A program made the position numbers and the translations under genes. The notes under the pieces are model-generated. The model was given only the letters and a program-made list of their open reading frames with translations. It was not told the DNA's origin and searched no databases. This document shows, in pieces, positions 881 through 59,609 of a stretch of 64,000 bases of DNA (position 1 is its first letter; every line of letters starts with the position of its first letter). This DNA comes from Eledone cirrhosa (taxonomy: Eukaryota). The stretch is taken from the NCBI GenBank assembly GCA_964016885.1, contig OZ024745.1, positions 31,868,001 through 31,932,000 on the forward strand, written 5' to 3'.

Positions 881-1019
881 TAGAATGACTCAAACTAAAT
901 AAAGAAACACACAGCTATGAACTTACTTTATTGCAGTGGCTTCTTTCGTGAGAAATTTGTGTCTGGCTTTTATTCATAACTAGACTACTCGTGACCCGTT
1001 GGGTCACGAGTAGTCTAGT

Positions 1020-1056
1020 ACAGGTAATCAAAGTATGTATACATTTTTCCGGGACA

Positions 1057-1738: not shown

Positions 1739-3723
1739 TCCTAAACGGACAGTAGTCCGTTTAGTAATATTGTTGTGGTCGTGTTTTCGTTGGCAATCGT
1801 CTGTTTACGACAGTACAGCGCGGCTCTACTTTATTTAACTGAGATAAAACTTATATGATCATGAACAGTAGATCATTACGCATCTTTTGGCTTAAAAATC
1901 TAGAAATTTGGTCCAGCGGGAAAAAGTTTATAATCAAAGTTTGCTGATAAATCTTGTGTTCAAGTGAGTGAGTAGTAAGCGTGACGCTAGGGGAGGTAAT
2001 TACGAGGTAATTACAAGGGGAGGTAATCTAATATATTTCAAATTGTATTTTTAACTAAATTCATTTATCATAGTCTAATATTTTAAAAATAGGTGAGTGC
2101 TCCACGATGATGAGCCATGTCCCCGCCATGTGAAAGTGATGCTTAGGAGCCATCCAGATATCATGTGACTATTTTTGGTTCGCGGTGTCCACGTGATATC
2201 TGGATGGCCCTTTATACTAATTAGTCATTTATCTGCATAAAAATTATACCAGATCATTCTGATTATTGGCTTGAAATCTTTTACAAAATTAGTATGAGCA
2301 ACTAAGAGGTCATCAATAGAATCAATAGAAATAGAATTACTTTTTGAAGTTTTCATGCACAGCATTTTTGGGGATTTTAAATAAAAGTTAATATCATAAT
2401 TCTTATTTTGTATACCCACATTGCAGATACAGAGAAACATGACAATCCTATATAAAGGTCGTAGACAGCAGTATCAGTTTTTATCCGTAACACCATTGAA
2501 ATGCACAAGTTTCACCAATTCACTATTATGCACTAATCATCTCAAATGCATTCATGATTTACTAGCTTTGTCATTAAGTCAGTTGCCTCAACTAGATTGC
2601 AATTATACTCAAAAGAACTTTAAAATGTCAATCACTTGTCAGTAATTCACTATGATCTTTTAATTATTAGATAGTTGTTGCTTGCATTGCCTTAAAAAAT
2701 AGTAGACCAGATAGAAAAATGCGTACAGCAAAAAAAGGTAATATTGTTGGAATATAAACCTTTAAAAATACAGGACAAAAAACTAAAATAAAACTTTAAA
2801 AGAATAGGACAAGAAACTAAGATAAAACTTTAAAGAATTGGACAAGAAATAAAAAATTTTACAATAATATTAGTGTCAAAATTTTTTTATTCGTTTCCTG
2901 TGCTATGACCCAGTATCTTCTTGATTAGTGCATAATAATTGTCATGCTCTCATTGTGCGTTGCCCCTGAGCGGTTGGTTCTGGTTGGGGTTGGTTGGCTG
3001 ATCAGTTCTGCTCCGTCAGAATGACCATTGCAAGAAGAATTGGCCGATGTAGCTGCAGGTCTCCTCCAAGAATGCACTTCTGGTCCCGCAACACCAGACG
3101 AAGATGGAGAAGACGACCGGGACAAGATGTCGACTCTGACCACCGACTACGGCACCTCCCTCAACCACCGGTCCTCTCTCCCGTCATCCCTCCAGTCCTC
3201 CTGCTCCCCCTTCCTGTACCAGAAAGCTGTGGCACGCATTCATCTGGACTGCCGGACTTGAACTCAAGGACAAGATGCAAGGAGAAGATGGACGGGTTGG
3301 TCAAGATCAAGGATGAGCGGGACGACAAGACCGTCCGCTGCTGCTCAAGATCTGTGCTCATGGGCCCATGGGTCCATTCACATTATGCATGACACATGAG
3401 GCGTGTCGCCGAATGATGAAATAGGGGTATGGTTATGGCCCAATTGGTGTTCAAACCAGGATCAAATGATCCCCCCGGTCTGACGACGACCTCTGAATAT
3501 GGAACCCAGAGCCTATGAATGTGGAACTCGATGTTTTACCAATAAAAATTTTGCCACTAATATTATTGTAAAATTTTTTATTTCTTGTCCAATTCTTTAA
3601 AGTTTTATCTTAGTTTCTTGTCCTATTCTTTTAAAGTTTTATTTTAGTTTCTTGTCCTGTATTTTTAAAGGTTTATATTCCAACAATATTACTTTTTTTT
3701 GCTGTACGCATTTTTCTATCTGG
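1739..3723 (+). mobile_element. Composite element with Helitron-type termini (5' TC ... 3' CTGG), copy 1
   Basis: Splits a satellite unit cleanly (CATTCTAA|TATATATATTGCC) with no TSD; same termini in the copy at 57988-59352; 5' subterminal hairpin CTAAACGGAC-N4-GTCCGTTTAG. Confidence 0.75.
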
Positions 3724-3724
3724 T
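2706..3724. mobile_element. Long-TIR (fold-back type) non-autonomous element, copy 1; ~185-bp TIRs with ~30-bp internal subrepeats and a GC-richer core
   Basis: ACCAGATAGAAAAATGCGTACAGC... at 2706 and its reverse complement ending at 3724. Confidence 0.85.
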
Positions 3725-4083
3725 ATATATATTGCCTGTACAGGTAATCAAAGTGTGTATACATTTTTCCGGGACACCATATATATATACCGGTGTCCCT
3801 AAAAATGTATACACCATTCTAATATATATATTGCCTGTACAGGTAATCAAAGTGTGTATACATTTTTCGGGGACACCATATATATATATACCGGTGTCCC
3901 TAAAAATGTATACACCATTCTAATATATATATTGCCTGTACAGGTAATCAAAGTGTGTATACATTTTTCGGGGACACCATATATATATATATATATACCG
4001 GGGTCCCTAAAAATGTATACACCATTCTAATATATATATTGCCTGTACAGATAATCTAAGTGTGTATACATTTTTCGGGGACA

Positions 4084-4152
<69 letters not shown>

Positions 4153-4352
4153 GGGGTCCCTAAAAATGTATACACAATTCTAATATATATATTGCCTGTA
4201 CAGGTAATCAAAGTGTGTATACATTTTTCGGGGACACCATATATATATATATATAATAATACCGGGGTCCCTAAAAATGTATACACCATCCTAACAAATA
4301 ATGCATGTATAGGCAATCAAAGTGGGTATACATTTTTGGGGAGACAACCTAT
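3724..4352. repeat. MITE/(TA)n satellite, block 2
   Basis: Same unit as block 1; ends in a diverged unit (…CCATCCTAACAAATAATGCATG…). Confidence 0.9.
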
Positions 4353-4442
4353 ATATACACAAATATGAACATATATATAGAGAGAAAGTGTGTGCAAGCA
4401 AGCAAGCAAGCAACCAATCAAGATCAGAGTTTTAGTAGTATA

Positions 4443-4745
4443 CTAGACCACCCGTGACCCGTTGGGTCATGTTCACTTTAAAATATTTTTTTAAAAATCG
4501 TGTTCACTTAAAAATAATTTTTAAATAATAAAAATATACACAGACATGTATATAATGTGAAATGAAACTGGAAGGCCTATATATATATACGTGAGTGTAT
4601 GTATATATATATGTGTGTGTGTGTGTGTAAACATATACATATATATGTATGTGTGTGTATATATATATATATATGTGGATGTCTGTGATCTACATGCACT
4701 GGTCATAATCACACACATATATATATATATATATTCACACACACT

Positions 4746-57987: not shown

Positions 57988-59352
57988 TCCTAAACGGACG
58001 GTAGTCCGTTTAGTAATATTGTTGTGGTCGTGTTTTCGTTGGCAATCGTCTGTTTACGACAGTACAGCGCGGCTCTACTTTATTTAACTGAGATAAAACT
58101 TATATGAGCATGAACAGTAAATCATTACGCATCTTTTGGCTTAAAAATCTAGAAATTTGGTCCAGTGGGAAAAAGTTTATAATCAAAGTTGCTGATAAAT
58201 CTTGTGTTCAAGTGAGTGAGTAGTAAGCGTGACGCCAGGGGAGGTAATCCAGAAATGACGTAGCTTTGTCATTAAGCCAGTTGCCTCAACTAGATTGCAA
58301 TTATACTCAAAAGAACTTTAAAATGTCAATCATTTGTCAGTAATTCACTATGATCATTTAATTATTAGATAGTTGTTGTTTGCATTGCCTTAAAAAATAG
58401 TAGACCAGATAGAAAAATGCGTACAGCAAAAAAAAGTAATATTGTTGGAATATAAACCTTTAAAAATACAGGACAAGAAACTAAGATAAAACTTTAAAGA
58501 ATAGGACAAGAAATAAAAAATTTTTCAATAATATTAGTGGCAAAATTTTTTTATTCGTTTCCTGTGCTATGACCCAGTATCTTCTTGATTAGTGCATAAT
58601 AATTGTCATGCTCTCATTGTGCGTTGCCCCTGAGCGGTTGGTTCTGGTTGGGGTTGGTTGGCTGATCAGTTCTGCTCCGTCAGAATGACCATTGCAAGAA
58701 GAATTGGCCGATGTAGCTGCAGGTCTCCTCCAAGAATGCACTTCTGGTCCCGCAACACCAGACGAAGATGGAGAAGACGACCGGGACAAGATGTCGACTC
58801 TGACCACCGACTACGGCACCTCCCTCAACCACCGGTCCTCTCTCCCGTCACCCCTCCAGTCCTCCTGCTCCCCCTTCCTGTACCAGAAGCTGTGGCACGT
58901 ATTCATCTGGACTGCCGGACTTGAACTCAAGGACAAGATGCAAGGAGAAGATGGACGGGTTGGTCAAGATCAAGGATGAGCGGGACGACAAGACCGTCCG
59001 CTGCTGCTCAAGATCTGTGCTCATGGGCCCATGGGTCCATTCACATTATGCATGACACATGAGGCGTGTCGCCGAATGATGAAATAGGGGTATGGTTATG
59101 GCCCAATTGGTGTTCAAACCAGGATCAAATGATCCCTTCGGTCTGACGACGACCTCTGAATGTGGAACCCAGAGCCGATGAATGTGGAACTCGATTTTTT
59201 ACCAATAAAAATTTTGCCACTAATATTATTGTAAAATTTGTTATTTCTTGTCCAATTCTTTAAAGTTTTATTTTAGTTTCTTGTCCTGTATTTTTAAAGG
59301 TTTATATTCCAACAATATTACTTTTTTTTGCTGTACGCATTTTTCTATCTGG
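57988..59352 (+). mobile_element. Composite Helitron-ended/long-TIR element, copy 2
   Basis: GACAA|TCCTAAACGG...CTATCTGG|TATATT; matches 1739-3723 but lacks ~2030-2560 and one TIR subrepeat; TIR part is 58404-59353. Confidence 0.8.
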
Positions 59353-59609
59353 TATATTATACATAGAAATTGAACGAATCAGCAACGTAATCCATAATAC
59401 ATTAAAAAAGGTGTAGAAAATCATAATCTCTCTATCTCTCTCATCACAAACTCTCTTTCTATATATATGGTAGTTGAAATGGTGGTGGTGTCGACGATAT
59501 ACCGGTAGTGTAACTTTGAAAAGAAGTCAATTTCAAATTATTTATTTTTACGAAATTATTTTTGTTTACGAAATTGAGTACATAAATTATGTAATATTTA
59601 TTCATTATT

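Follow-up and report, generated by a model that had tools for sequence, protein, structure and literature searches.

The window, a 64,000-nucleotide stretch of the Eledone cirrhosa genome, carries two deletion derivatives of an HLE2-clade rolling-circle transposon that lacks an endonuclease and whose 3′ end is one arm of a long fold-back. Across the HLE2 families compared, the 3′-terminal 135–210 bp is duplicated in reverse 0.5–0.75 kb upstream, and this fold-back is an old, native feature of the element, carried by sister families with family-specific arms. On the displaced strand the two arms probably pair, and completion of the 3′ end probably depends on this structure in cis. What the element is can be stated with far more certainty than what its fold-back does.

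Copies, ends and target sites

Both copies, first noticed for their exact termini in unrelated flanks, were confirmed: each has A on its left flank and T on its right, starts with TCCTAAACGG and ends with CTATCTGG. The two copies have 262 bp at the start and 1.1 kb at the end in common. The internal junction type of copy 1 was found at 6 loci, and that of copy 2 is common to 17 loci. The features of the copies and of the host site, in window coordinates, are as follows.

1739..3723, + strand: copy 1, a 1985-bp non-autonomous deletion derivative belonging to HLE2 family A, inserted between A and T in a satellite unit
1741..1764, + strand: 5′-terminal hairpin, 10-bp stem and 4-nt loop (−10.2 kcal/mol for the first 45 nt)
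1763..1775, + strand: left 13-bp asymmetric inverted repeat, directly after the 5′ hairpin
2707..2886, + strand: inner arm, an inverted copy of the element's own last 180 bp
2887..3543, + strand: spacer (loop), 657 bp, 52% GC
3544..3723, + strand: terminal arm with about three 34-bp repeats, ending in CTGG before the target T
3681..3693, + strand: right 13-bp asymmetric inverted repeat, 30 bp from the 3′ end
3724..4357, no strand: host satellite array to the right of copy 1 (left part 1018–1738), whose units serve as empty sites
57988..59352, + strand: copy 2, a different deletion derivative, 1365 bp
58405..58550, + strand: inner arm of copy 2, one 34-bp unit shorter
59207..59352, + strand: terminal arm of copy 2, one 34-bp unit shorter

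The arms are identical at 177 of 180 positions in copy 1 and at 142 of 146 in copy 2, and the A at 2706, beside the inner arm, mirrors the T flanking the terminal arm. The stem of the 5′ hairpin shows one compensated pair in sister family A′, and the two 13-bp repeats (1763–1775 and 3681–3693) form a pair that is absent from the original prediction. No strong hairpin follows the right 13-bp repeat, the last 45 nt folding at −1.2 kcal/mol in family A and −1.0 kcal/mol in family B. A small internal inverted repeat at 2149–2208, with 19-bp arms 22 bp apart, is present in the 3′ non-coding part of the parent too.

Rfam gave no match, and neither did Pfam on the short frames or on seven frames in and near the A and A′ spacers, longer spacers lying outside the scope of this search. 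In the A′ spacer of one locus (L128:2171–2788), a 205-aa open frame, blank in Pfam, contains a W-x-x-F...C-x-x-C stretch that resembles a BED finger. The spacer or parts of it (window 2870–3560) were also found, mostly at 95–99% identity, in contigs from runs with three other organism labels; the carriers are contigs of three sequencing runs and one RAD-seq run, too short to reach the arms, and among the sequencing runs listed no RNA run carries the spacer.

As originally proposed, copy 1 splits a satellite unit without a target-site duplication (TSD): its joined flanks match other array units at 96–97%, with zero duplicated bases. The 3′ junction of copy 2 (59353–59357) has five bases more than two paralogous empty sites, which may stem from target slippage or from a brief read-through. 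Two canonical Helitron-like 3′ ends, each a GC-rich hairpin followed by CTAG|T, lie at 980–1020 (+) and 4435–4472 (−) and point toward each other, with the 100-bp satellite array split by copy 1 between them.

A first look at the 3.0-Gb genome gave 681 candidates for the 5′ part and 509 for the spacer, and a terminal-arm pattern produced 432 exact matches, a few of them mutated inner arms, with none for the reversed control, so that chance is no explanation for the recurrence. The family comprises several hundred copies with exact ends. All 65 distinct 5′ junctions start with TC, preceded by A in 64, and the 66 distinct 3′ junctions end in CTGG (60), CTAG (3) or mutated forms (3), with T as the next base in 65. 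Copies for which both ends were found (n=42) range from 843 to 12,628 bp. Paralogous empty sites were clean at five loci (L031, L054, L063, L073 and L074), the remaining matches sitting in microsatellites and being uninformative. A fixed TSD was rejected because duplication lengths vary from 0 to 14 bp, 11 of the 42 copies have none and the long cases are (TA)n targets; end-to-end duplications of at least 4 bp were seen in 18 of 42 copies, against 11.5 in shuffled pairs. Tabulation of termini, TSDs and empty sites, the check that accompanied the original prediction, thus bears out its rolling-circle element with A|TC...CTRG|T ends, which are exact rather than ragged and come without a TSD of fixed length. 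Head-to-tail junctions gave 0 matches in a genome search.

Families B and B′ start at A|TC in 16 of 16 copies and end in CTAG|T in 14 of 15, and their 5′ hairpin is different and longer. The 3′ end is CTAG in families A′, B and C and CTGG in A; no ends could be recovered for locus L168, nor a 5′ end for family C. Rearranged copies were observed as well. At L066 (2410–3808), two 5′ ends stand head to head, with arms identical at 540 of 546 positions, no CTGG end and A|T-type junctions on both sides. A RepHel-coding copy from L133:3703 onward (with L134) opens with 30 bp that are an inverted CTGG end replacing the hairpin end, and consequently has two outward CTGG ends. In a 1019-bp copy at L080 (the same place as L044), a fusion at the 13-bp repeat joins the 5′ hairpin directly to the inner arm, and the fusion at L226 is between the first 20 bp and the end of the inner arm.

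The autonomous parent and its sister families

Parent copies of 10–12.6 kb have the same two ends and encode DUF6570, Helitron_like_N (Rep), PIF1 helicase and UCH. One of them, a 10-kb copy reached from extended 5′ hits (L062), still shows the frames of DUF6570, Helitron_like_N and PIF1 and the beginning of UCH, broken but all reading from the TC end. Near the start of its first RepHel frame (L062:2048–2074) lies GCVELNPGP, which resembles a 2A ribosome-skip motif. A search with the L062 Rep returned about 23 long matches at 89–100% and a second group near 62%. None of the ten near copies fetched has an unbroken RepHel, one copy of family A′ (L127) having a single in-frame stop. In family B, seven of ten fetched copies, about 99% identical at the DNA level, have a single frame of 2230–2245 aa comprising DUF6570, Rep, helicase and a C-terminal UCH domain. 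No endonuclease family was detected in the ORFs scanned, which covered the second ORF of A′ up to its last 62 residues.

The parent is an HLE2-clade rolling-circle transposon without endonuclease. DUF6570, found with E-values of 9e-18 in A′ and 2e-17 in B, is presented in the relevant part of PMC11417382 as HLE2-specific, and UCH as enriched in HLE2 subgroups c and d. The Rep motif 2 region reads F-W-R...RGAPH in A, A′, B and C and so has the F/Y-W-R signature that, together with an S, is given as a Helentron criterion in the section of PMC4067079 on this motif. The S between G and P is missing in all four families, which have A at this position, as do most of the closest relatives, S occurring only in endonuclease-bearing relatives. 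The family Rep has FWRLEYQQRGAPH where the genome's own HLE1 loci have VIEFQKRGLPH, so that the combination typical of HLE1-clade RepHel proteins (RG-L-P-H, no DUF6570) was not found in the family, and the two sets fall in separate clades of the tree. In this quick tree of 52 Rep stretches, which leaves out 6 of 51 relatives that have no motif 2 and whose relatives include none identified as a FoHeli or Phytophthora protein, A, A′, B and C group together with an SH-aLRT of 99. Their clade sits among relatives that carry UCH and is separate both from the Helentrons with an endonuclease and from the HLE1 proteins of the genome. A Helitron_like_N search returned HLE1-type loci, of which 30, about 3.5 kb each, were fetched without any match to the element. 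On contigs C19, C20 and C27 of G000, near-identical HLE1 Rep matches on a single strand are spaced about 100–200 kb apart, which suggests large tandem repeats holding a Helitron.

A Helentron/Helitron2-like variant in the opposite orientation had also been considered in the original prediction. DUF6570 and the F-W-R Rep agree with the class named there. The ORF runs from the TC/hairpin end to the CTRG end, and the element is therefore not reversed relative to its gene.

The proteins of the sister families are 89% (A′) and 62% (B) identical, and that of C is about 50% identical to B. Their arms measure 193 bp in A′ (ending in CTAG), 212 bp in B, 137 bp in B′ and 133 bp in C, and in these four families as in A the start of the inner arm lies at a homologous place, after a TTGCCTT/A-run motif and an A. 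Within elements, the arms are 97–100% identical (177/180, 189/192, 212/212 and 136/137), with 95% in C, and the inner arm of four families (A, A′, B and C) keeps the full CTRG|T. Among the columns of the first 75 nt that differ between A and B, 25 of 27 are mirrored in both arms, and BLAST found no match among the spacers of A, A′ and B. Family B carries a 10-bp equivalent of the 13-bp inverted repeat, read by eye.

The terminal side of B is without 123 bp present in B′, and its inner arm has gained about 65 bases that mirror the terminal-side sequence spanning this deletion, which is most simply read as the terminal side having been copied onto the inner arm. Rewriting of the arms at every cycle was considered and rejected: within family A, repeat number is equal between arms in 30 of 57 copies, against 24.8 when shuffled (p = 0.09), and mirrored arm variants number 5, against 2.5 expected. 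As the arms of family A are not rewritten in each cycle, arm copying appears to be episodic.

Retention and possible roles of the fold-back

Inner arms were counted for the first 100 of the 432 terminal-pattern matches (the first 417 Mb of contig 1), 98 of which are terminal arms. The inner arm accompanies 84 of these 98, once only partially, and is absent from 14, one of them at an assembly gap. The 13 informative armless junctions are all different, and each of the two of 15 that were checked genome-wide had no second occurrence among the 40 candidates with the best scores; junction types that keep the arm recur at 20, 17, 11, 6 and 5 of the loci examined. This pattern fits a need for the inner arm in cis, with armless copies arising after insertion, and falls short of proof. 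Against such a need, complete copies without the inner arm and with exact ends were found at L006, L025, L072, L200 and L231 and, in family B, at L147 and L172. In nine of 15 armless copies, the breakpoint is within about 17 bp of where the terminal arm meets the loop (element 1795–1823; the arm begins at 1806), a window that was picked post hoc and in which AT-rich microhomology may explain the clustering.

The combination of right spacer, arm and internal flank occurs at eight loci: the spacer is inverted at four, two more are ordinary copies whose target is similar, and the last two carry extensions. In these two (L188 and L190), CTGG is followed by 80 and about 178 bp, respectively, of the reverse complement of sequence upstream of the inner arm; in L190, the extension is followed by a remade last 45 bp with a normal end. 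As the template of both 3′ extensions lies upstream of the inner arm, pairing between the arms does occur occasionally. Flipped spacers amount to six distinct inversions among about 330 copies.

In the role that we consider probable, RepHel would nick the plus strand at A^TC and peel the strand off, by analogy with Helraiser, for which the accounts in PMC4778049 and PMC5876387 give a plus-strand nick at A^TC and, as terminator, a hairpin 11 nt from CTAG. The emerging terminal arm would zip onto the inner arm and stall the complex, substituting for the missing small hairpin, and the stalled complex would then cut at CTRG^T. Occasional template switches between the arms would copy one arm onto the other, which could maintain their long-term identity and sometimes flip the spacer. 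The geometry of stalling is a real difficulty, because the stem would close over CTRG, whereas the Helraiser hairpin is placed 11 nt upstream of it and the Helraiser enzyme is described in PMC4778049 as cutting in vitro only DNA that is single-stranded. Moreover, in the 2018 Helraiser model, as outlined in PMC5876387, the peeled strand is copied while emerging, so that the inner arm would be hidden, which counts against stalling.

A rather unlikely alternative, compatible with a role in termination, is that the 3′ end, once cut at CTRG^T and paired with the inner arm, primes the second strand, yielding a hairpin-ended duplex that would be recut at the re-formed CTRG^T. The extensions of L188 and L190 past CTGG match the product of such priming, and the inner arms of A, A′, B and C, which keep CTRG|T in full, would allow recutting; likewise, Helraiser donors must be double-stranded, transfected single-stranded circles not being converted, in the experiments reported in PMC5876387. 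However, only 2 of about 330 copies are extended, template switching in host replication gives the same product, and a full palindromic dimer centred on the module was found at none of the eight matching loci. Flipped spacers in 6 of about 330 copies, rather than half, argue against obligate hairpin transfer of the parvovirus kind. There is only a small chance that the family is an animal HLE2 clade with its own primer, in which the released single strand self-primes its second strand and the same copying keeps the arms identical; if so, the minus-strand step would be solved in cis.

We regard as improbable the opposite polarity, in which a Helitron2 with a reversed ORF would start at the CCAG end; the fold-back would then be a 5′ hairpin of unusual size, and the small hairpin that follows the inverted repeat would act as terminator. 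On the minus strand of family A, the inverted repeat indeed lies 24 bp from the end with the hairpin directly after it, as in the Helitron2 3′ ends defined in PMC3627910, and reversed ORFs are among the features reported for Helitron2-type elements in PMC3627910 and PMC4067079; the CTRG end is also more conserved between families than the hairpin end. Against this, T follows both junction cuts on the plus strand (65/65 and 65/66), as in described Helitrons, whereas a minus-strand start would be C, the repeat would stand 30 bp from the start instead of 0–2 bp, and in family B the inverted repeat lies inside the hairpin loop.

Still less probable is a neutral relic: an inverted self-insertion of ancient date, homogenized by gene conversion and hitchhiking beside a needed end. 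The inner arm ends exactly as would an inverted copy inserted at A|T, opposite-orientation self-insertion is among the proposals of PMC5148889, and 14 of 98 terminal arms do without an inner arm. Nevertheless, the inner arm is present in every family examined although the spacers have been replaced, and it is retained in amplified derivatives stripped of almost everything else. Long inverted repeats are prone to deletion, and yet no armless subfamily was seen.

The capture of a TIR (fold-back) transposon whose right TIR became a Helitron end, as the original prediction had it, is largely refuted already and hardly credible. The inverted arms are real, and the last 1 kb, ending in CTGG, does resemble a long-TIR element with 34-bp subterminal repeats, but it is not an element of its own: of 327 matches to the left arm with left spacer, 314 have the internal-flank G (flanks not read individually), eight are point mutants, four are spacer inversions (all whole elements) and one is L124, which may be a near-solo copy, its second arm being truncated inside a microsatellite. 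Two intact arms with a TSD, the free form that had been proposed as a check, were confirmed in 0 of the 327. The terminal arm holds the family-specific partner of the 5′ inverted repeat in A and B, Pfam gave no transposase match in the spacer frames, and A′, B, B′ and C carry the same fold-back at a homologous place; L124 and the two outward CTGG ends of L133 would suit a capture, which could also predate all families.

Comparison with known systems

The literature searches, confined to article texts, yielded no paper on a long 3′ fold-back in Helitrons, and the pertinent parts of PMC3627910 and PMC13085455 describe only short hairpins. How HLE2 elements end copying and how Helitrons make their second strand are treated as open questions in the corresponding parts of PMC3627910 and PMC5876387; a large, easily mutated cis structure together with seven intact family B RepHels makes both testable in a Helraiser-type assay. 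The fold-back is also an annotation trap, the last 1 kb looking like a MITE or a fold-back transposon.

Canonical Helitrons (HLE1, Helraiser), as characterized in PMC4778049 and PMC5876387, share with the family the 5′ TC, the 3′ CTRR, insertion at A|T without TSD and a RepHel on the same strand. They differ in belonging to another protein clade and in having a small hairpin 11 nt from the 3′ end, which is missing here, whereas the 5′ hairpin and the asymmetric inverted repeats are features of the family.

Short asymmetric terminal inverted repeats of the HLE2 type are present (13 bp in A, the 10-bp equivalent in B). Canonical HLE2 elements have a T|T target and a hairpin after the right repeat, while the family has A|T and its hairpin at the 5′ end relative to the ORF. 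With Helitron2, Helentrons and DINE-1, as portrayed in PMC3627910 and PMC4067079, the family shares asymmetric short inverted repeats, the F/Y-W-R Rep signature, an internal microsatellite and tandem repeats, and a terminal repeat whose inverted partner lies close by (the DINE-1 IR). It departs from Helitron2 and Helentrons, on the same accounts, in lacking an endonuclease and in its A|T rather than T|T target; furthermore, the DINE-1 IR is given there as short and 3–22 bp from the repeat, whereas the partner here is 180 bp long and 657 bp away.

Compared by descriptions of their ends, the closest likenesses appear to be with HLE2-reverse elements and proto-Helentrons, whose ends those of the family resemble. 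The HLE2-reverse FoHeli3/4/5 of Fusarium oxysporum, to the extent covered in PMC5148889 and PMC11417382, likewise have a DUF6570-bearing RepHel, no 3′ hairpin, a 5′ hairpin upstream of a 13–16-bp repeat and a right repeat 20–40 bp from the end (13 bp and 30 bp in family A). By the description in PMC5148889, however, FoHeli3–5 end in TGCCT/CTCCTGT with no target preference established, whereas the family has TC/CTRG ends and a strict A|T target. The UCH domain further distinguishes the family from FoHeli3–5, as does the long fold-back, which the descriptions of these elements in PMC5148889 and PMC11417382 leave unmentioned.

Proto-Helentron-Pi/HelenPi572 of Phytophthora infestans, in the portions of PMC4067079 and PMC11417382 devoted to it, also has an HLE2-type RepHel without endonuclease, and PMC4067079 adds a 3′ CTAG, A|T insertion without TSD, a 5′ stem-loop and short inverted repeats. 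It starts with TT and has its left repeat 3.6 kb inside, as reported in PMC4067079, whereas the family starts with TC and has the repeat adjacent to or inside the hairpin. According to the survey section of PMC11417382, HELIANO recovered nothing similar to proto-Helentron in 404 species. The 135–210-bp fold-back and the animal host set the present family apart from the element as described, and with it proto-Helentron-like ends are extended to an animal.
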